64,000 nt of DNA from a virus (Duplodnaviria > Caudoviricetes). Where the stretch lies: positions 1,316 through 65,315 of IMG/VR virus record IMGVR_UViG_3300009285_001197; one strand, written 5' to 3'. Numbering within the stretch: the stretch's first letter is position 1; every line of letters begins with the position of its first letter. The notes beneath the pieces were generated by a model. The model saw nothing but the letters and a program-made list of their open reading frames with translations. It did no database searches and was not told where the DNA came from. This document shows positions 20,213 to 55,919 of the stretch, in pieces. The translations under genes and the position numbers were made by a program.

Positions 20213-22867
20213 CTACGCAGCCATGTGTCCACCACCACCACCACCACTGAGCGATGCGTTAAGTTTATCCTTCCAACTGGATAGCTCCTTAGCCTTGGCA
20301 AGCTGTGGGGCGCTCTTGCTGAGTGTGAGGCGTACACACCAGCTTGTAGCGTCCACCTGATCGTCGTGCTTGCCTGCAGGAAAACGCAGCAGCTCCTGTT
20401 CGTATGTCGGATACCAGGGCGCGTTCTTTGGGAAGTAGAGCTTGCCCAACTGCATCCGCCCTTTCAGTGGGTTCGCACGCACCATCTTGTCAGTGAAGGG
20501 TGTGAGTATTTCGTACGCAGGGTACACATGACGCTCCTGGCAGCGCTTTGTGAACTGTGAGGCGATAGCCTTCCATATCTGACCATCCTCGAAGCCGAGA
20601 AGCAGTGCACCCCACTGCAGGTAGTTGTCGATGATCGTCTCGACGATAGCGTTACCGTCATCAGAGCGGAAGCGCAGGATGTCAAGCAGGTACAGGTTGT
20701 CGTACTCGTCCTGCAGAATCGTGGCACATACCGTCCAGTCGTTCTGTTCACCTTCGGTAATGGCGAAGTCCCACGCCTGATAGATCGACCGGCCACGCCT
20801 GTCTGGATTATGCACGTAGTGAAGCATCATCTTCTTGGAGAAGTAGATACCTTCGTCGGGAATAGGGTTTTGCTGGTACAGGGCGTCCCACATACGCTTC
20901 AAACCTGCAGCAATGTAGTTGTACTTCTTCCTGAGCAGGGCCGCAGTGGAGTAACGGGCCGGGTGCAGGGCTGTGTTGTGCCTGCGGGTCATGCGAGCGC
21001 CTTCTGGGACAGGGGCTTCTGGAGGTATCTCGATAATCGTGTCATCGGTCAGGATGTACTCGTCGCCAACCTCGTTGATTGCCGGGTAGCGCACAATTTC
21101 AAAGACCTCGCCACCCATGTCTTCGTCGCCACCCTCGATAGTCTTCTTCATAGTCTGCTGAATACGTCCTGCCCAGTCATCTTCCGACCACCATGTATTG
21201 TGGCTAACCAAACCGTTGGCGATGAAGTTCTCGGTATCTTCAACCTGAACGTCGAACACTTCCTCGACGCCGTCAGGCTCGATACTGACTATCTCATCCA
21301 GCGTGAAGTCTGAGATAGTCAGCGGCGGCAAGTGCCACTGACTCATTAGCAAGATGTCCGATTCCTGCGTTGCAGTCGTTGCACAGCAGACCTCTGACTT
21401 TCCCTGTGTCGTGGCAGTGATCGACGGCCAGTTTATTCTTCCAATGAGCTGGTGAATTACCTTCCTCAGCAGGTTTGCGACAGATCGCACAACACCCACC
21501 TTGCGAGGAGTACATGTAGTCGTAGTCTGCAGAGGTGATTCCATATCTGTGCTTGAGGCGTGCGTTGCGCCGAGCAGCAATGTCTGTGTCGCTTCCTGCT
21601 CTGTGCCCGGAAGCCCACCGCTTCTTGGCATAGTGACTGTCGCAAAGTCCGCGACACTTGGCAGGTTTTTCACACCCTTCTGCAGAGCAGTTAACGCCTC
21701 TCCATTTACCCCATTGTCCTTCAAGGTTACGATTCGCTTCGCTGTAGTCAGGTGTTTTAAGCGTGTCCATGATAGCTCCCCATTAGGTGCGACAGTCAGG
21801 AACGGATGTCTCTGATTCGCTCTGACGATTTTACCAGAGTTCATCGTCATTTTGAATACAGAATCACGACCACTTTGTTTGACTGCCGCCACTCTCGTGC
21901 GTGCTAGAGTACCTCGGGCATACGTCGCTATACTATCAGACGGTTTCAGAGTGTCGATCCTGCGCTGTGTACCGTCAGCCATCAGGACAGGTGTGTCACC
22001 AGTCATGCACATTATACCCAGCACGCCGCCGCCGGGTGCCAAGCGGGAGTGCGCGGTGGAGATATACCACTCCCATGTCGCGTCGCGTTGCAACTGTGAG
22101 TCTGCAGCCTCGATGTCCTTCACCAGGTCGTCGAGGATCAGAATATGAGCACCCCGCCCGGTAATCGCAGACCCTACACCAGCCGCGAGGTAGCCGCCCC
22201 CTTCTGTAAGGTTCCAGTTCTCGGTAGATTGACTCGACGGGTCAAGGATACAGTCTGGAAACACAGCGTGGTAAGCCGGGTCTCGCAAGAGGTCGCGGAT
22301 ATAGCGTGAGAAGCTCAGTGACAGGCTTGTTGTATGGCTGGCGGCGATGATTTCCCAGTCTGGATGTTGCCCGAGTATCCATGGAGCGAAGTGCCTTGAC
22401 CCGATCTCACTCTTACCACCACGAGGCGGCATCATCAACAGCAAACGGGGCTCCTCACCGTTCTCCACTGCCTTCAGAAAGCGTTCAAGGCGACGGCAGA
22501 TGTCTTCATGAACCCAACCAGCGTCGTATTTCGGACGAAAGCGCTTGATGAAGGGTAGCAAGCGGCGTCGCGCAAGTGTGCGGAGGGCCAGTTCGGCCTG
22601 CGGGTTCGCTGTAGCAGCTGCTTTGTCGAATTTCGGTGGGGTGTAGGGTTCTGACGAGGCTTCTTCAGCTTGCTGGGTGGGTTTTTCAACAGAACTTCGT
22701 GGGTTTCTCCCTCTAGCGGGCTTCTCCACGGGTATTTCGACAGGCAACCGCCCTTCGTCGTGGCAAAACGAACACACACTACCTATGAAGGTGTCTGGAT
22801 CACGTACTGAGCTACAGGCCGGGCAGGTTTGGAAGTCAGTGCTCGACACGGCGACTCTCTCCCTCAA
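20213..22867 (-). CDS. terL: Terminase large subunit with intein
   Basis: Walker A MPPRGGKS, Walker B ILILDDLVKD, nuclease motifs AWDFA and FPAGKHDDQVDA; interrupted by a 271-aa intein. Confidence 0.93.
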   Translation of the reverse strand: MRERVAVSSTDFQTCPACSSVRDPDTFIGSVCSFCHDEGRLPVEIPVEKPARGRNPRSSVEKPTQQAEEASSEPYTPPKFDKAAATANPQAELALRTLARRRLLPFIKRFRPKYDAGWVHEDICRRLERFLKAVENGEEPRLLLMMPPRGGKSEIGSRHFAPWILGQHPDWEIIAASHTTSLSLSFSRYIRDLLRDPAYHAVFPDCILDPSSQSTENWNLTEGGGYLAAGVGSAITGRGAHILILDDLVKDIEAADSQLQRDATWEWYISTAHSRLAPGGGVLGIMCMTGDTPVLMADGTQRRIDTLKPSDSIATYARGTLARTRVAAVKQSGRDSVFKMTMNSGKIVRANQRHPFLTVAPNGELSWTRLKHLTTAKRIVTLKDNGVNGEALTALQKGVKNLPSVADFATVTMPRSGGLPGTEQEATQTLLLGATHASSTDMESPLQTTTTCTPRKVGVVRSVANLLRKVIHQLIGRINWPSITATTQGKSEVCCATTATQESDILLMSQWHLPPLTISDFTLDEIVSIEPDGVEEVFDVQVEDTENFIANGLVSHNTWWSEDDWAGRIQQTMKKTIEGGDEDMGGEVFEIVRYPAINEVGDEYILTDDTIIEIPPEAPVPEGARMTRRHNTALHPARYSTAALLRKKYNYIAAGLKRMWDALYQQNPIPDEGIYFSKKMMLHYVHNPDRRGRSIYQAWDFAITEGEQNDWTVCATILQDEYDNLYLLDILRFRSDDGNAIVETIIDNYLQWGALLLGFEDGQIWKAIASQFTKRCQERHVYPAYEILTPFTDKMVRANPLKGRMQLGKLYFPKNAPWYPTYEQELLRFPAGKHDDQVDATSWCVRLTLSKSAPQLAKAKELSSWKDKLNASLSGGGGGGHMAA
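21197..22009 (-). mobile_element. Intein (271 aa) in TerL
   Basis: Block A CMTGDTPVLMADG, block B ANQRHPFLT, blocks F/G EVFDVQVEDTENFIANGLVSHN, +1 Thr. Removal restores GGGVLGIM-TWWSEDD, the TerL motif III region. Confidence 0.93.
21294..21770 (-). CDS. Endonuclease VII-like (HNH) homing endonuclease in an alternate frame inside the intein
   Basis: LKHRYGIT..Y..MYSSQGGCCAIC...LAVDHCHDTGKVRGLLCNDCNAGIG is a complete EndoVII signature. N-terminal CSAEGC..CRGLCDSHY Zn motif; own RBS GGGGAG-ctatc-ATG. Confidence 0.9.
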   Translation of the reverse strand: MDTLKTPDYSEANRNLEGQWGKWRGVNCSAEGCEKPAKCRGLCDSHYAKKRWASGHRAGSDTDIAARRNARLKHRYGITSADYDYMYSSQGGCCAICRKPAEEGNSPAHWKNKLAVDHCHDTGKVRGLLCNDCNAGIGHLANESVALAAADYLRLHAG

Positions 22868-25926: not shown

Positions 25927-28245
25927 ATGAAACTCTCATTCCTCTTTGCAGATATACCACTCAGTAAAACCATCTTCAAAGTTGATGGGAAGATTGACAA
26001 AAAAGCCTACCCCAATGTAAAGCTATTCACATCTGAAACAGTAATAATTTCAGATGCAGCAAGCCTCTTTGATACCATCAAAGCCCATGCTGAAGACCCA
26101 CGTGGACCATGCCTACTTTCTGGACCACTCAACCGAATCCTTAATAATGAATCTCGTGCTGGCAGCACAACCAGTCTAGGGCAACGTCAACTCATAATCC
26201 TCGACCTGGATAAAGCACAATTCAATTCTCCTGAAGAATTCATGCGCAATGCAGGATTAGAAGATGTCTCTTACACTGTTCAATACAGTGCAAGCCAAGG
26301 GCTCAGCAAAACCCTTAACTGCCACATCTTCATACTGCTCGAAAAAGCTATCCCTGCACCCCAGCTCAAAACATGGTTAATGTGGCTCAATCTTCGCAAT
26401 GATGCACTTAAAAATACACTCACATTATCTAATGCAGGCCACGCCTTGCACTATTCGGTAGACATTACTGTCTGTCAAAATGACAAACTAATCTATATCG
26501 CCACACCAAAATTCGATGGGATAAAAGACCCATGGAAAGAACCTCGCATTCAATTTGTCAAACGCACCCTAGACAAATTACCAAATAACAGACTTGCTGA
26601 ATGTGCTCTCGATGCACTCAAAGTTGATGCAAAGAAAATTCGCGACACCTTACGCAAAGCACAAGGTCTTGCCCCCATCACCTCCAAAGAAGTAATGCAA
26701 GGAGAATATCTTGTCCAAAAAGGTTCAGGACAAGTCACTATCACAGGTATGCGTGATAATGAAGATTTTCGTTATTTCAACTTGAATGGAGGAGATTCAT
26801 GGGGCTATTTTCACCCCATTAACAACTTTGAACTTCTGCACAATTTTAAAGGCGAACCTTTCCTCCTTATCAAAGAGGTCATGCCTGACTATTACACAGA
26901 ACAAATACACTTGCGTGATGAACAACACAGCACACCCCATGATCAACGTGACACCATTATGGTATTCATCAATAAACACACTGCTGAATACAAGAAACTC
27001 AAATACATCAACGGCCAGCTGGAAATCACCCCAGCCAAAAACGAAGCACAACTTACACATTTCATGCTTGAAAATCGCCTTTCAATGCCAAGATTCATAC
27101 AAGAATGGGATATGAAATTCAATCCACACAGCGAACAAATCATCAACCCCGAAGAACGTAGTATCAATACCTTCAAACCTTCCATGTACATGAACCCTGT
27201 TAACCAGGTCAAAGGTACATTCCCCAACATCAAACTTTTCTTTGAAAGTGCTGTAGGAACAGGTGATATTTACGACTATGTAATGAACTGGCTCGCGGTC
27301 ATCTTTCAACACAAAATCAAAACTCAAACTAGCCAAGTCTGGCAAGGCGTACAAGGAACAGGTAAGGGAAAAATTGTAGAACTCATTCTCAAACCTCTAT
27401 TTGGTTACCAGAATGTAACCAGTATCCTGGCCTCAGCATTGGATGAAGACTTCAATGCCATTATGGAAAATGCTCTCATTGTCTTCATTGATGAAATCGA
27501 AGCTGACATGTTCTCTAACACCAGCAAATTCGAAAGCAAGCTCAGGAAATGGATCACCGAACCTACTATAGACATTCGCCGCATGCGTACAGATGTCTAT
27601 TCAGTGCCTAGCTATATCAACCTGATTTTCGCATCAAACAAACCACGTCCCGTAGACATTCCACCTACAGACAGACGTACTAATGTAGGACAATTTCAAC
27701 GCAAACGCTTCCTACCCACAGATGCCCAGCACGATGGTGTCAAAGACGAACTCGCCGCCTTTGCATACTATCTACAACACCACACAGCAGATATTGCCTA
27801 CGCACGTAGCATCCTAGACACAGAAGATCGTCGTGAAATTCAACGTATCAGCATCAACAGCCTGGACGAACTCGCCCATGGTTTACTAGAAGGCAACTTC
27901 GAAATCATTGCCAGTGCTATGCCGGACGAACGACTCATGAACGAATCAGGTGTAATAACACCAATAGCCAGCAGCTTTATCAACATCGTGAAACGCTGCT
28001 CATTGGAAACAAAAAGCAAGCTTACTCGTGATGAACTAGCTGTAATCTTCGAACACTGCATTGGACATGTGCCTGAGGGTAAGAACAAATTTACCAGTTA
28101 TCTGAGACACCACGGGATAAACACCAAACGAATTAGTATCAATGGGGATAAAACCTATGGTATAGAAATAACCTGGAAAAAACATGACTTCAGTTATACC
28201 AAACAGCCATTAAGGGCTGTGAAAGGAACTAAAAATGCCGGATGA
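25927..28245 (+). CDS. Primase-helicase (C-terminal SF3/DUF5906-like helicase)
   Basis: Walker A QGVQGTGKG, Walker B VFIDE, LIFASNK and TDRR motifs; N-terminal LDLD..HIFI primase-like motifs. Confidence 0.8.
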   Translation: MKLSFLFADIPLSKTIFKVDGKIDKKAYPNVKLFTSETVIISDAASLFDTIKAHAEDPRGPCLLSGPLNRILNNESRAGSTTSLGQRQLIILDLDKAQFNSPEEFMRNAGLEDVSYTVQYSASQGLSKTLNCHIFILLEKAIPAPQLKTWLMWLNLRNDALKNTLTLSNAGHALHYSVDITVCQNDKLIYIATPKFDGIKDPWKEPRIQFVKRTLDKLPNNRLAECALDALKVDAKKIRDTLRKAQGLAPITSKEVMQGEYLVQKGSGQVTITGMRDNEDFRYFNLNGGDSWGYFHPINNFELLHNFKGEPFLLIKEVMPDYYTEQIHLRDEQHSTPHDQRDTIMVFINKHTAEYKKLKYINGQLEITPAKNEAQLTHFMLENRLSMPRFIQEWDMKFNPHSEQIINPEERSINTFKPSMYMNPVNQVKGTFPNIKLFFESAVGTGDIYDYVMNWLAVIFQHKIKTQTSQVWQGVQGTGKGKIVELILKPLFGYQNVTSILASALDEDFNAIMENALIVFIDEIEADMFSNTSKFESKLRKWITEPTIDIRRMRTDVYSVPSYINLIFASNKPRPVDIPPTDRRTNVGQFQRKRFLPTDAQHDGVKDELAAFAYYLQHHTADIAYARSILDTEDRREIQRISINSLDELAHGLLEGNFEIIASAMPDERLMNESGVITPIASSFINIVKRCSLETKSKLTRDELAVIFEHCIGHVPEGKNKFTSYLRHHGINTKRISINGDKTYGIEITWKKHDFSYTKQPLRAVKGTKNAG

Positions 28246-28429
28246 ATTTGACCTCAGCCAGGAACAACAAGCTGAAATGCTCACTTATCATATTGCTGAA
28301 CAAATACGCATTTACCCACCCAAACCAATCATCAACTGTTCTGACAACTGTGGGCCAAATATCCCCCATGGAAAAGAATGTACCTACTACAAGGATTGCC
28401 TGGAAGACTGGCAACTAAGGAATAAGTAA
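28235..28429 (+). CDS. Small Cys-rich protein (DksA/TraR-like, weak)
   Basis: MPDEFDLSQEQQ...CSDNC...CTYYKDCLEDW. Confidence 0.45.
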   Translation: MPDEFDLSQEQQAEMLTYHIAEQIRIYPPKPIINCSDNCGPNIPHGKECTYYKDCLEDWQLRNK

Positions 28430-28761
28430 TGAAAACATCAGAACTGATTGGCACCCAACTGGATTGGGCGGTGGCGAAATGTGAGGGGTGGAGTGCGGAA
28501 GGGTTGACGGATATTGCGAACGGCAACGTATTCCCCGAGCATGCTTTTTCATCCAACTGGGCACAAGGTGGGCCGATTATTGAGCGTGAAAGTATAAGCG
28601 TACTTGACGCTAATGGGTGCTGGGCTGCCAGATATTCATACTATGATAACTCACAGGTTAGCCGAGACTATTTTGGCCCAACACCACTAATTGCAGCCAT
28701 GCGCTGCTATGTTGCCAGCAAGCTGGGTGATGAAGTTGACGTACCGGAGGAACTCCTATGA
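28429..28761 (+). CDS. NinX/DUF2591-like protein
   Basis: KTSELIGTQLDWAVAKCEG...SSNWAQGGPIIERE...GPTPLIAAMRCYVASKLGDEV. Confidence 0.8.
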   Translation: MKTSELIGTQLDWAVAKCEGWSAEGLTDIANGNVFPEHAFSSNWAQGGPIIERESISVLDANGCWAARYSYYDNSQVSRDYFGPTPLIAAMRCYVASKLGDEVDVPEELL

Positions 28762-29450
28762 TCTCTTCAGCCAGCTACTCACGCTTACTAGACTTTGAAT
28801 CCTGTAAATTCAAGGCATTTCTCAAACACTACAAACGTATCCCTGACCCTCGCCCAAGCCCAGCTGCAGATCGTGGCACAGCAGTCCACCAAGCCTGCGA
28901 AGACTGGATGCGCGATCTACCCAATCAACCCAAACAGCCTATTGAAGCTGCCAAACACTTCAAAGCTGAGCTTAACTCTCTGAAGGAATCTTTCATAGCA
29001 GGTAAAGCTTCATTAGAAGGTGAGTGGGCATTTAACCATGACTGGAAACCCACTGAGTGGAAAACCGGCTGGTTCCGTCTTAAAGCAGATGCTGTAGTCC
29101 ACCCAAAACCTACAGAAGCCGTAGTCATCGACTACAAAACTGGCAAGCGCTTCGGTAACGAACTAAAACACGGTGAACAACTCCAGCTCTACACCTTAGC
29201 TGTCTTTCTACGTGAGCCTGAAATCAAACATGTTGTAGCTGAGCTCTGGTACTTTGACCAAGATGACTTAGCTCGTCTCGAGATCAGCCGCAAAGAAGGT
29301 TTACGTTACTTACGCCTGTTTGATAACCGTGCACGCAAAATGACCGAAGCTACAAGCTTCCCTCCAAACCCCAATGGCTTCAGTTGCAAATGGTGCCCAT
29401 ACAAACCTGAAGAACTAGGTGGCACAGGACATTGCACTAAAGGAGTCTGA
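28758..29450 (+). CDS. PD-(D/E)XK Cas4/RecB-like exonuclease
   Basis: SYSRL..FESC, RGTAVH, KADAV, VIDYKTGK, QLQLY, CKWCPY. Confidence 0.85.
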   Translation: MISSASYSRLLDFESCKFKAFLKHYKRIPDPRPSPAADRGTAVHQACEDWMRDLPNQPKQPIEAAKHFKAELNSLKESFIAGKASLEGEWAFNHDWKPTEWKTGWFRLKADAVVHPKPTEAVVIDYKTGKRFGNELKHGEQLQLYTLAVFLREPEIKHVVAELWYFDQDDLARLEISRKEGLRYLRLFDNRARKMTEATSFPPNPNGFSCKWCPYKPEELGGTGHCTKGV

Positions 29451-29452
29451 GC

Positions 29453-29638
29453 ATGAAACCAAACATAGCATCTAAATGTGAAATCTGCGGTGGACCTAAA
29501 GGTCGCTATTTCAACCATGAAAAATGCTCAAAAATCAAACAACAGCAACACACGCTAGATAAGCGACCACACAAGCAGACACTTGACACAAAACGACAGA
29601 AATATCTAAGTAAAACAGGAGAGCGTTATGATACCTAA
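29453..29638 (+). CDS. Small Zn-finger-like protein
   Basis: CEICG..HEKCSK; GGAG RBS. Confidence 0.5.
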   Translation: MKPNIASKCEICGGPKGRYFNHEKCSKIKQQQHTLDKRPHKQTLDTKRQKYLSKTGERYDT

Positions 29639-29840
29639 AAGAGTACGTCTCCAATTTCAAACCATACTCGAAGCTTCCAGAACACACAGCCTGTGTGTTA
29701 CTGAAACAACAAACCGTAAAACAGGAGCTAAAGTTTACATTCTCTGTGCCCATACAAATGAAAACCTTTACCCCTTGGCACAACTGGGAGCCATGTCTGA
29801 ACTCCATACCCCTCAACATAGCGGGAGTAAACTGATATGA
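29628..29840 (+). CDS. Hypothetical protein
   Basis: 70-aa ORF with AGGAG RBS. Confidence 0.5.
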   Translation: MIPKRVRLQFQTILEASRTHSLCVTETTNRKTGAKVYILCAHTNENLYPLAQLGAMSELHTPQHSGSKLI

Positions 29841-30047
29841 ACAAAAGAACGAACAACATTCTTATAGGTCAAGCTCTATTGGACAATATGAAAGCGTATC
29901 GCAAGAAAGTTACAGCCACGCCGGATTCTGCACGTAGTTTTCTGACCCGCCTAGGCGTCATGACACCCAACGGTAAGGTTAAGAAACTAATACAAAACTA
30001 ACTCTTGCAAAACGGAGTAAATTGATATGAACAAAAGAACGAACAAC
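29824..30047 (+). repeat. 34-bp direct repeat (29824-29857 and 30014-30047)
   Basis: GGAGTAAAyTGATATGAACAAAAGAACGAACAAC with one mismatch; covers the RBS plus the first 7 codons of two adjacent ORFs. Confidence 0.9.
29837..30001 (+). CDS. Small hypothetical protein (54 aa)
   Basis: Own translation MNKRTNNILIGQALL...FLTRLGVMTPNGKVKKLIQN; GGAG RBS. Confidence 0.55.
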   Translation: MNKRTNNILIGQALLDNMKAYRKKVTATPDSARSFLTRLGVMTPNGKVKKLIQN

Positions 30048-30167
30048 CTTATGCGTATTTGGGTAAACGCAGGAATTTCAGCTGCTAAATTTAACAAAGC
30101 CCACGCCGTTTCACTTTTGACTGATCTCGGCGTACCTGAATCAGTGATCCAAAGGACGCTACCATGA
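30027..30167 (+). CDS. Small hypothetical protein (46 aa)
   Basis: Own translation MNKRTNNLMRIWVNAG...VIQRTLP; GGAG RBS. Confidence 0.5.
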   Translation: MNKRTNNLMRIWVNAGISAAKFNKAHAVSLLTDLGVPESVIQRTLP

Positions 30168-30245
30168 AGCTAACTTCATATGGAACTTTCTGGATGGTGT
30201 ACTTCATTTTCTTCCTATTTGCAGCCTATTTCTTTGTCGCATAAA

Positions 30246-30674
30246 ATGAACATTCTTAAATTTATACCATTAGTACAAGAACTAGCGCTACTGTCAAAAG
30301 ACCCAAGTACAAAAGTAGGTTGCGCAATATTCGGACCAGGTATGGAAATTAGAGCTACAGGATGGAATGGGTTCCCACGAGGGGTTAATGACACCGAAGA
30401 AAGACTCAATGACAGACCTACGAAATATAAATTCATCACCCATGCAGAGGCGAATGCAATCGCTAATGCGGCGCGTTCTGGCGTCGCCCTCGAAGGATGC
30501 TCTCTGCTTGTTACTGCGTTGCACCCGTGCAACGATTGTGCCAAGCTGCTCATTCAGTCTGGCATCAAAAAAGTGTATGCACCATTGCCCGAAATCGACG
30601 GGCGCTGGGCAGACAGTTTCGAAGTTGCCGCCACAATGTTCCGCGAAGCAGGAGTGGAGGTAGAGTTTTACTAA
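30246..30674 (+). CDS. dCMP deaminase
   Basis: SKDPSTKVGC, GWNGFPRG, HAEANAI, PCNDCAKLLIQSGI. Confidence 0.92.
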   Translation: MNILKFIPLVQELALLSKDPSTKVGCAIFGPGMEIRATGWNGFPRGVNDTEERLNDRPTKYKFITHAEANAIANAARSGVALEGCSLLVTALHPCNDCAKLLIQSGIKKVYAPLPEIDGRWADSFEVAATMFREAGVEVEFY

Positions 30675-30913
30675 ATAAGGAGAAAGTTTCTGTGAATATT
30701 ATTCTCGAACTTATCGAAGGAATTGCTAATGGTGGACACACAAGCCTTATCCTCCCGAAAGGATTGATGCAGAATGAAAGCTGCTTAAAGTGCGCATACG
30801 GCGGGGAAAACTTAACTGTCAATTTCTGCAAACGCCCACTAGATCAGAAATGTCATAAGGCTATACCCGACGTCGCTTTAACCAGCTATTGAGTAGATAT
30901 AAGTGATGTCCGA

Positions 30914-30971
30914 GTGGAACGCAGAAATAACCGGCGACTGAAAGCCGTCCGCGTTGATTGCCGGGTTAGCA
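30914..30971 (-). repeat. attC-like site A
   Basis: Minus strand: TGCTAAC-CCGGC-AATCAACGCGGACGGC...GTCGCCGGTTATT-TCTGC-GTTCCAC. Confidence 0.7.
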
Positions 30972-30993
30972 CACAACAAAAAAGGAGCAAAAA

Positions 30994-31173
30994 ATGAAAA
31001 TAGAAATCAGGCTCAACGAAGAAACCGAGGAGAAAGAACTGTATCTTTTTGGTGATTTTCAGGCTTCGTGGAATATACTGGTAGATGACAGTAAGGTAAT
31101 TATTCCTTACGCGATAGATGCGGCTATAAAGATCGGAGAAGATTGGACGCCAAGCGGCGTCCCTCTTGAATGA
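30994..31173 (+). CDS. Cassette ORF, hypothetical (59 aa)
   Basis: AAGGAG RBS; own translation MKIEIRLNEETEEKELYLFG...PSGVPLE. Confidence 0.55.
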   Translation: MKIEIRLNEETEEKELYLFGDFQASWNILVDDSKVIIPYAIDAAIKIGEDWTPSGVPLE

Positions 31174-31197
31174 CGGGTTGGGCAACGAAAGGATACT

Positions 31198-31482
31198 ATG
31201 AAACGCGAACTTAATGACACAGAAAAACGTGTAATAGATGCTGCAAAAACACTTGAAAAAGACAAGTGGCGCGGTACGTGGGGAGCAACATCTATCCAGA
31301 TTCTCGGCTGGCCCGATTCTGGTAAAGCCTACATGGCAAAAGAGCTTGGAATTTCTGCCGCAATAGCCGAGTTGCGAAGGCGCGGAATTGTGATTATGCA
31401 TCATCGGCATGGGTACAGGCTGGCAGTGCCCAACGTAAAATTAACCAGCGGTGCGCACGCCGCACCCGAAACGGAGAAATGA
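31198..31482 (+). CDS. Cassette ORF, winged-HTH-like
   Basis: AAAGGA RBS; ISAAIAELRRRGIVIMHHRHGYRL resembles a wHTH. Bounded by GTTGGGCA (31177) and TGCCCAAC (31427). Confidence 0.6.
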   Translation: MKRELNDTEKRVIDAAKTLEKDKWRGTWGATSIQILGWPDSGKAYMAKELGISAAIAELRRRGIVIMHHRHGYRLAVPNVKLTSGAHAAPETEK

Positions 31483-31632
31483 ACATGAACGCTACCGAAA
31501 GACTAAGGCAGTACATCGGGTCGGAAGAAAGATTAAGAAGGACGGTACGCCTGGGGCAGTAATTTATGAGATATTGGCTAGTTACAATAAAAATCCGGTA
31601 AAGGTCGTGAATTAGACTGGAGGAGATAGAAC

Positions 31633-31923
31633 ATGAGCATAAGGAAAATTTTTGAGGATTGGTACTTTGGCGAGAACCATACAGGTAAAGCAAGGGAGCG
31701 TAGCGAGAATGGAGGGTACAGATACATCGCCGCCGAAGCTGCGTGGAATACGTGGCAAACAGCAACAAAAGCAGAGCGCGAGGCGTGCGCAAGGCTATTC
31801 GAGGACGCTGACGGCGTGGTGCACGAGCGCACCGCTGCGAACTGGCGCGACCCTGCGCGGGCCATTCGGATGCGATCTAACGTAAAGGTAAGGGGTCGCC
31901 CGCTTTTGGGCGATCCCTCTTGA
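31633..31923 (+). CDS. Cassette ORF, hypothetical phage protein
   Basis: GGAGGAG RBS; FEDWY..AAWNTWQ..AEREACA motifs; reads through attC D. Confidence 0.65.
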   Translation: MSIRKIFEDWYFGENHTGKARERSENGGYRYIAAEAAWNTWQTATKAEREACARLFEDADGVVHERTAANWRDPARAIRMRSNVKVRGRPLLGDPS

Positions 31924-31937
31924 CCGCAGGGTTGGGC
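31875..31937 (-). repeat. attC-like site D
   Basis: Minus strand: GCCCAAC-CCTGC-GGTCAAGAGGGATCGCCC-AAAAGC-GGGCGACCCCTTACC-TTTAC-GTTAGAT, with the extra C in L''. Confidence 0.85.
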
Positions 31938-31958
31938 GGTTTTAACTGGAGAAGAGAA

Positions 31959-32261
31959 ATGAGCGAAACAGCAAAATGTGCAATTTGTGGCGAGCCAATG
32001 CCGCCAGGCGAGGAAATGTTCAAGTACCACGGATACAGTGGGGATTGCCCAAAGCCACCAATGCCGAAACCTCCGGCAAAGCAGAAAATACCGGGATTGA
32101 TTGCCGCTGCCGCATACGCGGACAACAAGAGCGTATCAATGCTCTTCGATACCTCAGAACAGGCGCACGCTTTCGTTGCTGGCATAGAGGCTGATGTGGC
32201 GCCCAACGTGGATTTCAGCGGCTCGACGCCGCTTTATGGCGGCGAGTCCGCTGGAAAGTAG
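31959..32261 (+). CDS. Cassette ORF with CxxC...H..C motif
   Basis: GGAG RBS; MSETAKCAICGEPMPPGEEMFKYHGYSGDCPKPP. Confidence 0.65.
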   Translation: MSETAKCAICGEPMPPGEEMFKYHGYSGDCPKPPMPKPPAKQKIPGLIAAAAYADNKSVSMLFDTSEQAHAFVAGIEADVAPNVDFSGSTPLYGGESAGK

Positions 32262-32269
32262 GGTTCGGC
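32201..32269 (-). repeat. attC-like site E
   Basis: Minus strand: GCCGAAC-CCTAC-TTTCCAGCGGACTCGCCGCC...GCGGCGTCGAGCCGCTGAAA-TCCAC-GTTGGGC. Confidence 0.85.
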
Positions 32270-32305
32270 GTCTTATCGGAGCCGACTTTTGAGAAAGGGA
32301 ACGCA

Positions 32306-32635
32306 ATGGAAAAACTAGACATGAAGCACCGACCGAGCGCCGAGTATCGCTACTGGCTGTACGACCCCGAAGGCGACGGAATGGTGTACTTCCGCACGCA
32401 AACGGAGCGCGACAAACAAGCTGCGAGGGCGATTGATGCGTACCTCGATGACGGGTGGGCGGACGAGGTTGAACTCGTGGCAGCCGGAGAGTTGACGCAC
32501 TTTGCGCAGGTGCTTGATAAGCAGATGCGGCCAGCGGACGAAGACCTCGACGAAGACTGGTACGACGGCGAATGCACCGCGTGGCCCGAAGGCATGGACT
32601 GGGGCGAGAGCGGAAGCGGACGAAGGCCGCTGTAG
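32306..32635 (+). CDS. Cassette ORF, acidic hypothetical protein
   Basis: AAAGGGA RBS; YWLYDPEGDG...LDDGWADEV. Confidence 0.65.
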   Translation: MEKLDMKHRPSAEYRYWLYDPEGDGMVYFRTQTERDKQAARAIDAYLDDGWADEVELVAAGELTHFAQVLDKQMRPADEDLDEDWYDGECTAWPEGMDWGESGSGRRPL

Positions 32636-32687
32636 ATAATCGCCTGGAGCGTAGGGTTGGGCGGCGACGCCCGGAAAGGACAAAGAT

Positions 32688-33299
32688 ATGAAGTTTGATG
32701 ACATGAACCCGATGCAGCGACGGTTGCACAACGTGGCATGCGTATTGGACGCGGATGGTGACGAGTACGGTTTTGTTCCGCTGTTGCTGGAAACGATCGA
32801 AGCGCTCGCAACAGCACCTCTAAAAGAGTTCACGCCTGTCGAGTTCCTGCTGGATGGCGCACGACTGAAGCTGTCGTTTCGGCAGGAAGAATGCGAGTCA
32901 TGCGGAGCGTCGAGTGCGCACTTCCACACGGCGCCAATGGATCAGTACGCCGAAGAACTGCGAGGCTTGTGGGTGGCGCTGGTGCCGGCAGAAAACGACA
33001 GGCATTTGAAGATGAAGATTCCGACGCCGACTTTTGGAGACAAAGACATGACCTGCCACACAAAAGAACAACTTGAAGAAATGCTGTTTGACGTGGTGAA
33101 TGAACTCGACCTGTCGGACTTGATGATCGAAGAGCACGGCCCGCTTGGAACGCCACCGGCAACACTGGTGCGGCTTGTGCTTGAGCGCAAGGATTTGGAG
33201 ATTCGCATGCTCAAACAGGGCTTCGTTGCCGTGACGCCGAACGCCAGCGTGAGCGGCGCGGAGCCGCAGGCGGAGCGTCCGACTCGACGCAACAGTTAG
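32688..33299 (+). CDS. Cassette ORF, hypothetical (possibly two fused ORFs)
   Basis: AAAGGA RBS; internal GGAG..ATG at 33048; ends inside attC G. Confidence 0.65.
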   Translation: MKFDDMNPMQRRLHNVACVLDADGDEYGFVPLLLETIEALATAPLKEFTPVEFLLDGARLKLSFRQEECESCGASSAHFHTAPMDQYAEELRGLWVALVPAENDRHLKMKIPTPTFGDKDMTCHTKEQLEEMLFDVVNELDLSDLMIEEHGPLGTPPATLVRLVLERKDLEIRMLKQGFVAVTPNASVSGAEPQAERPTRRNS

Positions 33300-33301
33300 A
33301 C
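33236..33301 (-). repeat. attC-like site G
   Basis: Minus strand: GTCTAAC-TGTTG-CGTCGAGTCGGACGCTCCG...CGCGCCGCTCACG-CTGGC-GTTCGGC. Confidence 0.82.
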
Positions 33302-33313
33302 ATCGGAGGAAAA

Positions 33314-33496
33314 ATGAAAGTCACATGCGAACTTAATATTGGTAACGACCAAGAGCATCCGGGGGTCAAGATTCTGTTTGAGGGAGAACCAACGGAAAAG
33401 CGCGGATTCATCCACCTACGGATAGGTGATGTTCAGTATGAGTTACGGCCATCAGAAGTGGCAGCGGCATTGCAAAGGGTGCGTAGCGATGCCTAA
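33314..33496 (+). CDS. Cassette ORF, hypothetical (60 aa)
   Basis: GGAG RBS; its stop TAA lies within the GCCTAAC core. Confidence 0.65.
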   Translation: MKVTCELNIGNDQEHPGVKILFEGEPTEKRGFIHLRIGDVQYELRPSEVAAALQRVRSDA

Positions 33497-33580
33497 CGTA
33501 GAGCTAAGGGGCGCGAGCGATGACGCAACAACGAAGTGAAACCGGCTGTTCGAGCGTCCCATTTGAGCGCCTTGTTATGC
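33491..33580 (-). repeat. attC-like site H (90 bp)
   Basis: Minus strand: GCATAAC-AAGGC-GCTCAAATGGGACGCTCG...CGCGCCCCTTAGC-TCTAC-GTTAGGC. Confidence 0.85.
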
Positions 33581-33909
33581 CTGCTGGGGCCGTTGCGCTG
33601 CGGCCAGTGCGTTTTTTGCCTGGCGACGGACTGCGCTACTACACGGCCACAACATTTCCGCGCGACCGGCGTGCAGGATGTGACATGTATTACCGCAGAT
33701 GCCGCGCCTTCGGCGGCGTGGAAGGCGAGCAAGCAGGAATTTGCGACGTGCTGGACGCGAGCGGTGATGTGGTGGCCGACTTCCCGCTTACTGCGCATGG
33801 CCTGGACTACCTGTACCGCGCACTTGGGTGTCGGGTAGATGGGCATAACGTTCAAATTGAGGCGCGGCGCGCTGTTGCGCCGTCGCTCTCGAATGCAGGG
33901 TTAGGCTGA
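33577..33909 (+). CDS. Cassette ORF, hypothetical
   Basis: Open frame between attC H and I; start uncertain (33520 or 33577). Confidence 0.45.
   Translation: MPAGAVALRPVRFLPGDGLRYYTATTFPRDRRAGCDMYYRRCRAFGGVEGEQAGICDVLDASGDVVADFPLTAHGLDYLYRALGCRVDGHNVQIEARRAVAPSLSNAGLG
33843..33906 (-). repeat. attC-like site I
   Basis: Minus strand: GCCTAAC-CCTGC-ATTCGAGAGCGACGGCGC...GCGCCGCGCCTCAAT-TTGAAC-GTTATGC. Confidence 0.85.
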
Positions 33910-33927
33910 ACTTTTAAGGAGATCAGG

Positions 33928-34113
33928 ATGAAATTTAATGAAACGCTGATTTATAGGGTACTAAGTATTCCTGGAAATGAATGGGAAAAAAGTTGCGGAT
34001 ATGTGTTTGCATTAAAAATTCCAGTCCTGATTGTGATGATGCTTGTCGGAGTTCCGACTGCAATTGTGATTGATTTTTTCTACGCAGCATTGAAAGTTGA
34101 CGGTGATGCCTAA
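33928..34113 (+). CDS. Cassette ORF, small membrane protein
   Basis: AAGGAG RBS; hydrophobic segment; stop TAA within the GCCTAAC core at 34108-34114. Confidence 0.6.
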   Translation: MKFNETLIYRVLSIPGNEWEKSCGYVFALKIPVLIVMMLVGVPTAIVIDFFYAALKVDGDA

Positions 34114-34172
34114 CGTGAAATAGACAACATACCGTGCAACGAAAGCAGGCATAAAACAAGGAGTAACGCGCC

Positions 34173-34364
34173 ATGCCATCATTGAAATCCGATATTTTCA
34201 TCATAGTGAAAGCAGGTGACAAATCGTTTTCAATCGGTGGCGTTCTGCTTCCTGATGGCCGCTATGCCATCAAACGCGGACGATCCTGGGCGAAGAAGAT
34301 CAGAACGACAACATTGAGCGAGATATTTACAGAAGCCCGCAAATGGGTGGTGATAAACAAATGA
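34173..34364 (+). CDS. Small basic hypothetical protein
   Basis: AAGGAG RBS; 63 aa. Confidence 0.55.
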   Translation: MPSLKSDIFIIVKAGDKSFSIGGVLLPDGRYAIKRGRSWAKKIRTTTLSEIFTEARKWVVINK

Positions 34365-34593
34365 GAAACACTTTTCCCGCGTCGATTAACGCAACTCAAC
34401 AGGAGCGTGAAATCATGAGGTTTGGACGCCAAGCGGGTGCTGACGGGTAAGCCGTCACCTAATTCAAAAATCAATATGACAACTCTAACAAAATCTGAAA
34501 GAATGATCGACCAATTGCGTCAGAGGTTAAGCACAGCACGCACTAAGGAAATCATTCTTCTCAATCAAATCATACAACTCAAGGAAGAGATTC

Positions 34594-35958
34594 ATGAGCA
34601 CTACCTCAACTGCCATGGCTCATCAGAAACAAAGCCTGAAGAAACTGGAAAAGACCCCACTAGCATTTGACACCAGCGACCCAGGTACTGGCAAAACTTT
34701 CGTACAAATCATGGATTTTGCTAAACGCCGTCGTAAACAAGGTGGCAAAGCTCTAATCATTGCACCCAAATCTTTACTTGAAAGCGCCTGGAAAGAAGAC
34801 TTTCAAAAGTTCGCACCGGACATAGCAGTAGTCTGTGCTTATGCAGAGAATCGTGCAGAAGCATTCAAAATGCCAGCCGACGGAGTCATCACTAACACAG
34901 ACGCCCTCCTCTGGCTGAGTAAGCAACCCAAAAAATTCTTCAAGGATTTCGACACCCTAGTTATTGATGAATCAACCAGCGTAAAGCACAAGACCAGTGG
35001 TCGCAGTAAAGCAGCCGCCAAGATCAGCAAATACTTTAAGTACCGCCGCCTAATGACAGGAACACCAACCAGTAACGGTATCACTGACATCTGGCACCAA
35101 GTATTCATTCTCGATGAAGGTGCCCGTTTGGGCAAAAGCTTCTTTAGTTTCCGTGCAGCCGCCTGCACACCTCAACAGGTTGGGCCAGGTCCTAAAATGA
35201 TTAAATGGACAGATCGCCCAGGCATTGAAGGAATCATTGGTGTATTGCTCAAAGACATCGTGATTCGTCACAAGTTTGAAGACTGTGTAGACATCCCTGA
35301 GAACCACCGTTACTCAGTGCCCTACACTCTGAAGAAATCTCACAGAGCAAATTACTCTGAGATGGAAAAAGAACAGCTCCTCCTTCTGAAAGACACTATC
35401 ATCACAGCAGTCAACGGAGGTGTTGTCTACACCAAGCTTCTACAAATCGCATCTGGAGCTGTTTATGACGGAGAAGGTAACTACACGCTTCTGGATACCG
35501 GTCGGTACGAACTCGTTCTTGATCTTGTGGAAGCCCGTCAACATTCTATTGTATTCTTCAACTGGCAACATCAGAGAGATTTGCTGGTTGCCGAAGCAGA
35601 GAAGCGCGGCCTAAGCTTTGCTACTTACGACGGAGAAACCAACAAGAATGACCGAAAACAGATCGTTACTGACTTCCAGGCTGGCAAGTACAACGTACTC
35701 TTTGCCCACCCACAGAGTGCTGGCCATGGTCTCACATTGACCAAGGGTACAGCGACGATATGGGCCTCACCCACCTACAACCTGGAACACTTCGCCCAAG
35801 GCTGGAAGCGCGTGCACCGCATCGGTCAGACGCAAAAGACTGAAACCATCGTAGTGGTAGCTAAAGATACTGTAGATGAAAAAGTATGGGCCGTGCTCAA
35901 TGAAAAAGATGGCAAAATGAGCGCCCTGCTAAATGAATTAAAAGAACTGATGAAATGA
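34594..35958 (+). CDS. SNF2-family (SF2) helicase
   Basis: DPGTGKT, VIDES, MTGTP, SAGHGLTL, QGWKRVHRIGQ. Confidence 0.9.
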   Translation: MSTTSTAMAHQKQSLKKLEKTPLAFDTSDPGTGKTFVQIMDFAKRRRKQGGKALIIAPKSLLESAWKEDFQKFAPDIAVVCAYAENRAEAFKMPADGVITNTDALLWLSKQPKKFFKDFDTLVIDESTSVKHKTSGRSKAAAKISKYFKYRRLMTGTPTSNGITDIWHQVFILDEGARLGKSFFSFRAAACTPQQVGPGPKMIKWTDRPGIEGIIGVLLKDIVIRHKFEDCVDIPENHRYSVPYTLKKSHRANYSEMEKEQLLLLKDTIITAVNGGVVYTKLLQIASGAVYDGEGNYTLLDTGRYELVLDLVEARQHSIVFFNWQHQRDLLVAEAEKRGLSFATYDGETNKNDRKQIVTDFQAGKYNVLFAHPQSAGHGLTLTKGTATIWASPTYNLEHFAQGWKRVHRIGQTQKTETIVVVAKDTVDEKVWAVLNEKDGKMSALLNELKELMK

Positions 35959-36152
35959 AACACCACTTGCTACTTATCTGGTTATTCATGGTTCTATATT
36001 ATGGATTCTTCTTAACCTATAGCACATGGGATACACAACTAGAAATCATCTTGATGGTCACAGTGCCCTTTTTACTAGGTTACCGCACATGCAAAAACAA
36101 CACATCATCTTCGACATCGAAATCATCGGAGACCAGAAACCAGTCTTCCTAG
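35955..36152 (+). CDS. Small membrane protein
   Basis: Two hydrophobic segments; ATGA coupling to the helicase. Confidence 0.4.
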   Translation: MKHHLLLIWLFMVLYYGFFLTYSTWDTQLEIILMVTVPFLLGYRTCKNNTSSSTSKSSETRNQSS

Positions 36153-37990
36153 TCTGCACCAAGAACGTAGAAACAAAGGAAACACAAGCCTTCTGGATGC
36201 ACAAACGCGGACACATGAAAAAACTGGAAGCAATGCTTCCTGAGTATACATGGGTCAGTTTCAACGGAATCAATTTCGATGCACCACTAATTTGTGCGGC
36301 CATTGCTGGGGCTGACGAACTCTGGCTCAAAGATGTCGCCAACCAAATCATTGAACAGCAAATGCGTTCATGGCAGACCTACCGCGAATTCAAAATTGAA
36401 TTCATTGACTTTGATCACATCGACCTGATTGAAACTGCGCCAGGTGTGATGATCTCACTTAAGACATACGCAGGACGAATGGGTCACCCCACTATGGTAG
36501 ATATGCCCTTCCCTCACGACCTAGACCTGAAGCTTTCGCAACACAAACAATTAGAGAATTACTGTCTAAATGACCTAAGCGTCACAGAGGCGTTGTTCAA
36601 AAAACTATCAAAGGAAATCCAACTTCGCAAAGAATTAGGGGCTAAGTACGGAATTGATCTGCGCAGCAAATCAGATGCCCAGGCAGCAGAAGCCATCATG
36701 AAACAAGAACTAAGAATTGGAAAAGTTCAGAAAGACACTCCAAAGCTTATCAGTTACAAAGCACCTGACATTATCAGACCCAAAACCAAAGCAATCAAAG
36801 ACCTGGTTGCTAAATTTGAAAACACATACTTCAAGATCAACCATGCCAATGGTTCACCCATTGCCCCAGACTGGATGGAAGAAGAATTCAAACTGGGCAA
36901 AGGCACCTACACCATAGGAATTGGTGGCTTGCACAGTACACATGATCGGAACCTGCACGTCCAAGCCTCTGACACACTCTTGATCAGCGACTTTGACGTA
37001 GCCAGTTACTACCCTAATATCATGATGAAGTGTGGATTGATACCACGTCTTCCAGGCGACCTGGGACTGCAATTCCTTGAAACCTACAAAGAGATTTACG
37101 AACAGCGTCTGGAAGCCAAACACTCTGGGGACAAAACCGTAGCAGATACACTTAAGATTGTTCTGAACGGAAGCTATGGCAAGCTAGGCAGCATCTACTC
37201 TGTATTCTACTCACCAGACATGATGCTTGGAGTGGCCATCACAGGACAGCTCAACCTGCTAATCCTGATTGACAAGCTCGAACGCATCAAAGGCGTAACC
37301 GTCTATTCAGCCAACACGGACGGCATCACCGTAGGGCATAGCCCAGAAGCCCGTGAGGCAGTGCTCAAGGTATTCTCAGACAATGTAAAAATCACCGGCT
37401 TTGAGTACGAGGAAACACCTTACAAACTCATCGCTATGAAAGACGTGAACAACTATATTGCTATTACCACATCGGGTAAGGCCAAGCGTAAAGGCCTGTA
37501 CGCCAAGTCCGGTGTACATGAAATGAAGAACCCAACAATGGAAGTCTGCTCAAACATGGCCACAGACTACTTGCAATTTGGTAAATTACACATTGAGAAT
37601 TACGACGATATAAAAGATTTCGTCGCAGTACGCAATGTCAAAGGTGGAGGAGTCCAACACCTTCGTACAGAATTGCGTGACGACTGGGTGGAAACTTCAG
37701 ATCGGGTTTGGCAGGCCAATGGAAAAACAGTCAAACGCAAGTCTCGCCCAGCACCCTACGAAATCGGTGTAGGGGGAACACCTTTCGGTCGCGTGGCCAG
37801 ATGGTACATGGCAACAAAAAAACTGCCTGCTATCACTTATGTAGAAAGTGGCAATCAGGTCCCAAAAACCGAAGGGGCCAAGCTCTGCATGACCTTGCTC
37901 GATAAATTACCAAATGATCTGGACTATGACTGGTACATCAGGGAAACAATTTCAATGCTCAAGGATATGGGCGTCACCTATTCAAAGTAG
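36089..37990 (+). CDS. DNA polymerase, family B-like, with 3'-5' exonuclease domain
   Basis: Exonuclease motifs FDIE, FNGINFD, YCLND; polymerase motifs DFDVASYYPNI, KIVLNGSYGK, SANTDG. Confidence 0.9.
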   Translation: MQKQHIIFDIEIIGDQKPVFLVCTKNVETKETQAFWMHKRGHMKKLEAMLPEYTWVSFNGINFDAPLICAAIAGADELWLKDVANQIIEQQMRSWQTYREFKIEFIDFDHIDLIETAPGVMISLKTYAGRMGHPTMVDMPFPHDLDLKLSQHKQLENYCLNDLSVTEALFKKLSKEIQLRKELGAKYGIDLRSKSDAQAAEAIMKQELRIGKVQKDTPKLISYKAPDIIRPKTKAIKDLVAKFENTYFKINHANGSPIAPDWMEEEFKLGKGTYTIGIGGLHSTHDRNLHVQASDTLLISDFDVASYYPNIMMKCGLIPRLPGDLGLQFLETYKEIYEQRLEAKHSGDKTVADTLKIVLNGSYGKLGSIYSVFYSPDMMLGVAITGQLNLLILIDKLERIKGVTVYSANTDGITVGHSPEAREAVLKVFSDNVKITGFEYEETPYKLIAMKDVNNYIAITTSGKAKRKGLYAKSGVHEMKNPTMEVCSNMATDYLQFGKLHIENYDDIKDFVAVRNVKGGGVQHLRTELRDDWVETSDRVWQANGKTVKRKSRPAPYEIGVGGTPFGRVARWYMATKKLPAITYVESGNQVPKTEGAKLCMTLLDKLPNDLDYDWYIRETISMLKDMGVTYSK

Positions 37991-46049: not shown

Positions 46050-46327
46050 TCCGCTTTATCACTGTCAAAAAAGCCGCAGAATTCACAGGCTACACAGAGG
46101 CGGCAATCAAGACTAAAATACGCGATTTCGTCTGGCTCGAAAATGAAGTCTGGATTCGAGCCCCAGACGGTCGCGTATTGATTTCCATCGAGGGATATAA
46201 CTCATGGGCAGAGTCTACAGTACCGGCGTCGAAGCCTTCTCGGCAACGACGATCCGTATCACCTTCACCTATCAGGGCATCCGTTGCCGCGAAGCACTCA
46301 AGCTTGAGCCCACTCCCGCTAATCTAA
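46046..46327 (+). CDS. xis: Excisionase
   Basis: ITVKKAAEFTGYTEAAIKTKIRDFVWLENEVWIRAPDGRVLISIEGYNSW; directly upstream of and overlapping int. Confidence 0.8.
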   Translation: MIRFITVKKAAEFTGYTEAAIKTKIRDFVWLENEVWIRAPDGRVLISIEGYNSWAESTVPASKPSRQRRSVSPSPIRASVAAKHSSLSPLPLI

Positions 46328-55845: not shown

Positions 55846-55919
55846 GGTGGTAGTCCTATCTGTCAGAGTTTGTTGGAGTTGATTACGAAAGTAAGTGCGC
55901 AGCTTTAGCTGCACAGTAC

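Follow-up and report, generated by a model that had tools for sequence, protein, structure and literature searches.

How does a phage come to carry an array of integron-type attC sites in which every gene points against the usual cassette polarity, and what moves the units of such an array? This question is raised by positions 30914-34114 of the DNA stretch analysed here (the window, which comprises 64,000 of the 65,315 bases of one IMG/VR record with a CheckV completeness of 100%), where six full attC-type hairpin sites and four remnants lie between plus-strand genes of a temperate phage of about 65 kb from groundwater. Integrons are seen as bacterial devices, in which the strand choice of the integrase makes captured genes face the promoter. 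The analyses below confirm that the window sites are genuine integron-type sites and that the genes lie on the attC bottom strand. The reading that we favour, and in which we have fair confidence, is that the block is a cluster of attC sites lacking integron integrases (CALIN), composed of reversed cassettes on a complete temperate phage genome, whose units are probably moved by an integron integrase (IntI) in trans.

The attC-type sites of the block and the strand of their genes

The initial annotation had marked six complete sites in the block, and all six are present where it had placed them, with the AAC...GTT frame in 6/6. It had also proposed half-sites near 31177, 31428, 32656 and 34108; these hold up as motif-level repeats only (families D1, D2 and D4), and the scores that they obtain with the covariance model R1, which is described below, are not significant (4.8 and 5.4 bits). 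From left to right, the block contains:

30914-30971, plus strand: attC-type site wS1, the left (tail) end of the array; R1 18.1 bits, E 6.5e-4 with filters off; 3' arm with three bulged bases, 5' arm with none
31150-31183, plus strand: remnant S1b, a 3' half-site with stem, extra G, spacer and GTTGGGC; repeat families D1/D2; R1 4.8 bits, not significant
31428-31466, plus strand: remnant S2, a 5' half-site with GCCCAAC, spacer and left arm, the right half being replaced; repeat family D4
31875-31937, plus strand: attC-type site wS3; R1 38.5 bits; extra G, T and T at 3, 6 and 9 pairs into the 3' arm
32201-32269, plus strand: attC-type site wS4; R1 49.4 bits, E 4.2e-13
32640-32662, plus strand: remnant S4b, a 3' half-site; repeat family D2; R1 5.4 bits, not significant
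33236-33301, plus strand: site wS5, attC-type by architecture only; bulged G, A and T on the 3' arm alone; partial R1 match of 6.2 bits, not significant
33491-33580, plus strand: attC-type site wS6; R1 20.3 bits, E 1.4e-4; long loop holding the ATG at 33520
33843-33906, plus strand: attC-type site wS7; R1 46.2 bits; two bulged bases on the 3' arm
34108-34131, plus strand: terminal lone core, GCCTAAC with a non-palindromic flank

According to the arm alignment, each of the six full sites is an imperfect palindrome with R and L boxes, in which the AAC...GTT frame encloses unpaired spacers of 5-6 nt, the central one included, and a stem. Bulged bases are absent from the 5' arm in 6/6 sites and number, in site order, 3, 3, 1, 3, 5 and 2 on the plus-strand 3' arm, where they are usually found 3, 6 and 9 pairs in from the 5-nt spacer and read G, N, T. 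The consensus RYYYAAC...GTTRRRY is matched in full on both cores in 31875-31937 only, while the five other full sites keep AAC/GTT and deviate at one or two flanking positions; natural attC sites often depart from the 7-nt core consensus. The established attC architecture, which had been attributed to all of these sites, stands with regard to the frame, the spacers and the one-arm extra bases (6/6) as well as R1 (5/6). The plus-strand hairpin is the more stable one in five of the six sites (mean difference 1.3 kcal/mol). Minimum-free-energy folds of single sites were messy and did not directly reveal the attC fold, a generic scan for AAC...GTT palindromes with paired stems was unspecific (21 matches in the window vs 10-21 in five shuffles), which is why a covariance model was used instead, and an Rfam search of 28000-37000 returned no match.

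The model was built from a seed pattern derived from the window's own sites (GCCTAACGT, gap 35-65, GGGTTRGGC), a search with which retrieved 87 IMG/VR stretches with 69 distinct sequences. The bulges lay mainly on the 3' arm in 60 of these 69 and mainly on the 5' arm in 4, with 5 being equal. MAFFT and RNAalifold on 11 hand-picked sites returned no consensus structure and were replaced by a hand-written structure on an alignment of 54 sites from other viral contigs, from which 15 poorly paired or odd sequences had been left out; this alignment underlies R1. With its two fixed bulges, the structure pairs 92.1% of the cells, compared to 75.0% in shuffles (0/500 reach the observed value), and controls with a slid structure do not exceed 46.7%. 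Covariation supports the stem strongly, both partners having changed in 12 of the 13 L-stem pairs. Applied to both strands, a check that the initial annotation had suggested, R1 has significant matches on the plus strand only; these are five of the six full sites, with 49.4, 46.2, 38.5, 20.3 and 18.1 bits (E ≤ 6.5e-4, filters off), while its best minus-strand match reaches 7.7 bits (E 0.69). With five model-supported sites within 3 kb and IntI absent from the record, the block corresponds to the definition of a CALIN.

Next to the window, R1 was applied to arrays of accepted polarity. It recognizes the aadA1 attC of R100 with 41.3 bits on the strand opposite to aadA1 (1/1) and, in the class 1 array of phage P1 MH445380, five attC sites, each of them just behind its cassette gene and all opposite to the gene strand (5/5), so that the accepted class 1 attC sites were recovered in 6/6 cases at E ≤ 4.3e-6. 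In 80 bacterial IntI loci, it detects 44 sites, of which 43 are on the integrase strand and all of these 43 upstream of intI. The Vibrio-type attC sites of phage Va_90-11-286_p16 were uninformative as a control; R1 is blind to them and thus covers one attC type only. From its strand in R100, P1 and the bacterial IntI loci we conclude that R1 reads attC bottom strands, and since its matches in the window are on the gene strand, that the gene strand of the window is the bottom strand.

The extra-helical bases lead to the same result. According to Nivina et al. (2016, PMC5027507), those of attC bottom strands (G16, T/A20 and T24) occupy the arm that is opposite to the cleaved 5'-AAC-3' and steer the integrase to the bottom strand. 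The bulge positions of the window sites correspond to G16, N20 and T24 of that work, opposite to the AAC that would be cut. In contrast, the aadA1 attC of R100, when read in gene sense, carries its extra bases (C, A) on the 5' arm, and it is therefore the bottom strand that the coding strand of the window resembles.

That the genes are indeed on the plus strand, as claimed for all open reading frames (ORFs) and ribosome-binding sites, is supported by a Shine-Dalgarno (SD) sequence and an ATG 12-36 nt past the preceding site, by a GC content that is higher at the first than at the second codon position (GC1 > GC2), and by homologues of three of the ORFs; the long minus-strand ORFs have neither the SD/ATG feature nor that GC pattern. 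The earlier remark that several ORFs read through or stop in the core sites is likewise correct: four run across the core of the next site in the frame xxx-AAC-Gxx (AAC = Asn), and two terminate at the TAA of GCCTAAC. The inversion of the genes relative to the attC sites is thereby verified, with R1 on the gene strand in the window (5/5) and opposite to the genes in R100 and P1 (6/6). The classical cassette layout, in which the gene strand is the attC top strand and the attC site lies downstream, is not found in the window, where the site strand is the gene strand.

Gene polarity in viral and bacterial arrays with the same sites

Across the viral loci, R1 yields 296 matches in 89 loci, most of which represent dense one-strand arrays. 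For the 176 intervals between neighbouring R1 sites, we took the longest ORF per strand (≥ 60 aa) and judged it by Pfam (E ≤ 1e-4); the R1 strand contributed 157 such ORFs and the opposite one 103. A Pfam match was obtained for 11/157 of the former (7/75 plus 4/82) and for 0/103 of the latter (0/75 plus 0/28). The domains on the R1 strand are N6_N4_Mtase (twice), Acb2/Tad1, Lar (twice), FtsK_gamma, DUF7736, DUF6378 and DUF5131, with Zn_ribbon_4 and MgtE_N below cut-offs. In bacterial IntI-linked arrays with the same site type, by contrast, Pfam supports 2/15 of the R1-strand ORFs (DUF1203 and an IS110 transposase) and 7/24 on the opposite strand (Imm32, DUF4304, GFA twice, HicB, Methyltransf_11 and one below the cut-off). 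The orientation of the supported ORFs differs between viral and bacterial arrays (Fisher p = 4.6e-4), and in viral contigs reversed genes are the general pattern of this site family. A cruder comparison of the two strands by ORF length near single sites was mixed (12 plus-dominant and 27 minus-dominant of 69) and was replaced by the Pfam-judged ORFs between model matches.

Several cassettes of these sister arrays encode domains of counter-defence type, namely the Acb2/Tad1 hairpin, Lar and N6_N4 DNA methylases. Each of them lies on the attC bottom strand, at the following positions:

L060:2443-2718, minus strand: sister-array cassette with a counter-defence-type domain
L068:1387-1629, minus strand: sister-array cassette with a counter-defence-type domain
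L033:1208-1450, minus strand: sister-array cassette with a counter-defence-type domain
L067:900-1628, plus strand: sister-array cassette with a counter-defence-type domain
L065:983-1672, plus strand: sister-array cassette with a counter-defence-type domain

On the bacterial side, an IS110-family transposase gene (L183:5684-6844, plus strand) is found between two attC sites of the cassette array of a Beijerinckiaceae metagenome-assembled genome.

A phage-borne attC array in itself is not new, since phage CALINs have been published by Qi, Rajabal, Ghaly, Tetu and Gillings (2023, Front Microbiol, PMC9892861), who list MW202573 with four predicted attC sites and report an assay in which IntI1 recombines the attC sites of phage TJE1. 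These phages resemble the window in carrying attC arrays between small genes without IntI, and methyltransferase cargo also recurs in the sister arrays of the window. MW202573, although an unrelated phage, comes particularly close: its site at 2072-2133 is 88.7% identical to window positions 33846-33907 (62 nt), the array has the same layout between plus-strand genes, and the gene strand carries all four R1 matches (4/4), of which one has E 0.099. TJE1, in contrast, has classical polarity, whereas the window, MW202573 and the family in viral contigs are reversed. The polarity of the genes relative to the bottom strand is not mentioned in the abstract, section 3, tables and supplement of PMC9892861, and full-text literature searches returned no paper on phage cassettes lying on the attC bottom strand, which is not proof of absence.

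Compared to classical cassettes (aadA1 in In2 of R100; estX-psp-aadA2-cmlA1-aadA1-qacH), the window sites share the AAC/GTT cores, the unpaired spacers of 5-6 nt, the one-arm G/N/T bases, a length of 58-90 nt and a common covariance model. However, a classical cassette has the gene first, on the top strand, and the attC site after it, whereas in the window the attC site leads and is followed by a bottom-strand gene; the array has no IntI and apparently neither an attI nor an integron promoter (Pc), and its ORFs cross the crossover codon (AAC = Asn) into the site of the neighbour. Sedentary chromosomal integrons (IntI loci L127, L128, L159, L183, L193 and others) carry the same R1 site family and show the same relation between site strand and integrase strand as the one viral contig with an IntI, which is described below. 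They differ in that seven of their nine Pfam-supported cassette ORFs are opposite to the site strand, one of the other two being the IS110 transposase, and in their cargo, which comprises GFA, HicB and Imm32 in contrast to Lar, Acb2/Tad1 and DNA methylases in the viral arrays. The phage array and the family of arrays in viral contigs use the same sites with opposite gene polarity, and the reversed layout provides a sequence rule for locating hot spots of phage accessory genes.

Unit boundaries, integrases and competing explanations

The block is located between the deaminase gene and the helicase gene of the plus-strand early arm and is foreign to its surroundings in composition: GC skew is +0.14 to +0.21 and GC content 0.50-0.58 at 31-34 kb, compared to -0.03 to +0.03 and about 0.44 beside it, in line with the earlier description of the block as G-richer than its flanks. 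Relatives of this phage (helicase identity 56-83%) have no R1 site; in three of them the exonuclease gene directly precedes the helicase gene, and others have unrelated small genes there. When searched by blastn against the phage collection, the array returned one 62-nt site match only and the helicase/polymerase region none. The closest relative has, in the accessory region that precedes its helicase gene (L004:5895-6376, plus strand), two tandem similar small genes (both with MPIDQNDP... starts) and no attC site. A possible conserved landing site, the sequence GTCTAACGT found upstream of the L004/L005 helicase gene, was discarded, being confined to that one phage (two contigs).

Individual sites recur elsewhere. 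Contigs of other groundwater and aquatic metagenomes carry wS3, wS5 and wS7 at ≥ 90% identity (most ≥ 95%) with unrelated flanks, wS3 recurring in four other metagenome runs and wS5, with 4 mismatches and different flanks, in a contig of run X11. The X11 contig also matches the regions of remnants S2 (31428-31487) and S4b (32603-32658). ORF 31633-31923 has a homologue in a contig of another metagenome; there, collinearity extends over 31622-31882 (8 mismatches) and is then lost, two conserved bases past the AAC core, and the gene is preceded by the right end of an attC site.

Shared blocks between sister viral arrays reveal where the units end. Eighteen of 35 non-redundant block ends are within 10 nt of the R1-strand AAC core (5.7% expected, p = 7e-14), and three blocks of 428-472 bp with 97-100% identity extend from the AAC core through attC site and gene to the next AAC core, which is what AA|C cutting of the bottom strand would produce with each attC site ahead of its gene. 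The array itself has a full site at its left end and a lone GCCTAAC at its right end (34108), which, by analogy with the geometry of bacterial arrays, would fit a classical array whose bottom strand is being read and whose integrase side is on the right; the lone core may then mark the insertion junction at the integrase-proximal head. In another viral array (L052 and L076, one contig), a gene occurs twice, 96.6% identical, behind two different attC sites.

As the initial annotation had noted, no IntI is encoded by the phage: in the whole 65,315-base record, the best match to TIGR02249 reaches 18.6 bits against a cut-off of 265, and an intI adjoining the array, as in a complete integron, is not found. 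The phage integrase, which had rightly been described as not IntI-like, carries an Arm-DNA-binding domain:

46204-47382, plus strand: tyrosine integrase gene, Arm-DNA-binding domain

Of the array-bearing viral records, 49 in all, 13 have a completeness of at least 90%, and an IntI above the cut-off is absent from these (0/13). The exceptions among the 49 are a provirus with a broken IntI and a 48%-complete contig with an IntI of 425 bits (cut-off 265), in which the sites keep the classical relation to intI and a DUF5131 gene (E 2e-75) is on the R1 strand. In this contig (L118:1489-2529, minus strand, and L071:858-3019), the DUF5131 gene points towards intI. It is a complete integron with a reversed cassette, and IntI can thus accompany the reversed layout.

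A unit of the window array consists of an attC hairpin, a leader of 12-36 nt with a ribosome-binding site and one or two small genes, and ends at the AA|C of the next core, so that its gene is on the bottom strand, the one folded and cut by integron integrases. An IntI from the host or from a co-resident element would most likely fold the plus-strand hairpins and cut them at AA|C, and attC-first units would be excised or inserted via attC x attC exchange. Shuffling by a borrowed IntI, as originally suggested, is what we infer from the sequences, with indirect support from the block ends at the AAC core, the window-gene homologue that breaks there and the relatives without the array; bottom-strand cutting at AA|C by IntI in trans is plausible and partly supported. 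The cassette genes would be transcribed as part of the phage early operon and not from an integron Pc.

Several observations weigh against the movement of reversed units by IntI in trans. The record lacks IntI, and 48 of the 49 other array-bearing viral records likewise have none above the cut-off. The orientation counts depend on few Pfam-supported ORFs (11 viral, 9 bacterial), the viral loci were chosen with a pattern derived from the window's own sites, and the reversal is not universal, with phage TJE1 having classical polarity by the same bulge criterion. Of the 35 block ends, 5 are at the GTT core and 12 elsewhere, and in the L052/L076 gene pair the left homology ends at the GTT core instead of the AAC core, so that exchange is not confined to the canonical crossover; these minority boundaries and the L052/L076 gene may leave room for top-strand events or homology-driven exchange. 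None of the window cassettes turned up complete in a different setting. Finally, 4 of the 10 sites have decayed to halves, R1 does not recover one of the full sites, and part of the array may therefore be fossil.

The last of these points can be extended to the whole block, which would then have been captured once by illegitimate or homologous recombination from another array-bearing element and would consist of relic hairpins that do not recombine in this phage. A record without IntI, the four decayed half-sites and the site failing R1, several fused units with at least two genes per full site, and relatives that simply lack the block would all be explained in this manner; contigs of four metagenome runs, compared with 30000-35000, contained no joints, though contigs cannot show rare excision products. 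We nevertheless regard such a passive relic as unlikely, because five sites score 18-49 bits with intact cores, spacers and bulges, the same sites recur in other communities at the high identities given above with unrelated flanks, and the boundaries of sister arrays fall at the AAC core. Shuffling could also proceed without any integrase, with cores and arms serving as short homology for phage single-strand annealing or replication slippage and exchange at either core, which would resemble the promoter-stem-loop cassettes of T4-type phages. The 5/35 boundaries at the GTT core and the 12/35 elsewhere, the 96.6%-identical gene at two places with different upstream sites, and the phage's own PD-(D/E)XK exonuclease agree with this explanation. 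However, the strong bias towards one core (18 vs 5 boundaries), identical cores of just 7-9 nt, and conserved one-arm extra-helical bases together with stem covariation, i.e. a feature of protein recognition and not of homology, render it improbable.

Even less is to be said for two further explanations. The hairpins might be substrates of another recombinase, such as the lambda-like Int of the phage, an Xer-type or an HUH enzyme, and a tyrosine integrase is indeed encoded at 46204-47382. Yet the sites agree with classical attC sites in sequence, spacing and bulge positions, the phage Int with its arm-binding domain reaches 18.6 bits on the IntI model, and wherever a neighbouring enzyme exists (one viral contig and the bacterial loci) it is IntI, which leaves this explanation very little probability. 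The hairpins might instead act in RNA, in processing, stability or translation control before early genes, with the attC likeness being secondary; they are on the transcribed sense strand 12-36 nt before start codons, and one hairpin loop holds a start codon. Against such a role, there is neither an Rfam match nor an excess of terminator-like sites (8 vs 7.1 ± 2.6), R1 also detects DNA attC sites of class 1 integrons, and homology blocks break at the DNA crossover point, so that we consider it highly improbable as the sole explanation, while an RNA role could coexist with recombination.

If units are moved by IntI, a bacterial recombination system is exploited by phages for their own accessory genes, including some of counter-defence type, and the phage pool of cassettes is functionally separated from the bacterial one by polarity. 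A phage cassette would be antisense after entry into a bacterial integron, as would a bacterial cassette in a phage array, and the two pools would therefore share the enzyme and not the expression. A tentative extension, which we consider possible though doubtful, is that phages keep a mirror-image cassette pool that is moved by ordinary integron integrases and expressible only in phage operons, where bacterial cassettes would be silent. As the recombinogenic strand is the non-template strand of the early operon, transcription itself would on this reading expose the hairpins, and shuffling, including that of the Acb2/Tad1, Lar and methylase cassettes of the sister arrays, would be coupled to early infection.

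The genes of the array and their setting in the phage genome

The plus-strand ORFs of the block are as follows:

30994-31173, plus strand: 59-aa ORF, SD and ATG 22 nt past wS1; enters S1b and stops at a TGA in its spacer; no family match
31198-31482, plus strand: 94-aa ORF, SD and ATG 14 nt past S1b
31633-31923, plus strand: 96-aa ORF, reads through wS3
31959-32261, plus strand: 100-aa ORF with a Cys-rich N-terminus, SD and ATG 21 nt past wS3; reads through wS4
32306-32635, plus strand: 109-aa acidic ORF; 24 homologues (55-85% identity), one of them named, from Solimonas terrae
32688-33299, plus strand: 203-aa ORF, reads through wS5; its stop is the TAG inside GTTAGAC
33314-33496, plus strand: 60-aa ORF; its stop is the TAA of the wS6 GCCTAAC core
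33520-33909, plus strand: 129-aa ORF, starts at the ATG in the wS6 loop
33928-34113, plus strand: 61-aa hydrophobic ORF; its stop is the TAA of the terminal GCCTAAC

NCBIfam, Pfam and PHROGs assigned no function to the cassette ORFs of the window, and tblastn of these ORFs against all fetched loci revealed no shared cassette. The product of 31198-31482 is possibly a winged-helix protein, judging from a weak birA_repr_reg match (E 0.0027, below the cut-off). Partial matches to ORF 31959-32261 occur in other metagenome contigs, and ORF 32688-33299 has 74 homologues besides itself, most of which span about 30% of its length. For ORF 33520-33909, 109 other clusters were found at E ≤ 1e-3, typically of about 100 aa and matching query residues ~19-107. 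Its conservation is restricted to residues ~20-107, the part between wS6 and wS7, and both tails are therefore site-encoded. The homologue from Solimonas terrae may serve as a hint to the host, and only as a hint.

Neither promoter-like sites (3 vs 4.1 ± 1.9) nor the terminator-like sites mentioned above exceed chance within the block. Given this and the co-orientation with the early operon, expression by read-through from phage promoters, as initially proposed, appears plausible. The stretch 31486-31632, which follows the half-site at 31428, has no site and is made up of an ORF of 25 codons and an AT-rich spacer of 70 nt; it is the sole part of the array unlike a cassette junction, and no promoter-like match was found there.

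In the remainder of the window, the minus strand encodes the head, portal, terminase and virion genes, and the early/replication arm occupies the plus strand from about 25.8 to 47.4 kb, with genes for a DUF5906 primase, NinX, the PD-(D/E)XK exonuclease, dCMP deaminase, SNF2 helicase, DNA polymerase, an exonuclease and the tyrosine integrase. Two large minus-strand ORFs stand out:

20213-22867, minus strand: large terminase ORF, 884 aa; terminase profiles match residues 87-286 and 558-875
47983-55914, minus strand: 2643-aa ORF directly after the integrase gene

The approximately 270 residues between the two terminase-profile stretches are unexplained, and an inserted element (intein or homing endonuclease) could account for them. 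In the 2643-aa ORF, the match to a virion structural family is confined to the last ~340 residues.

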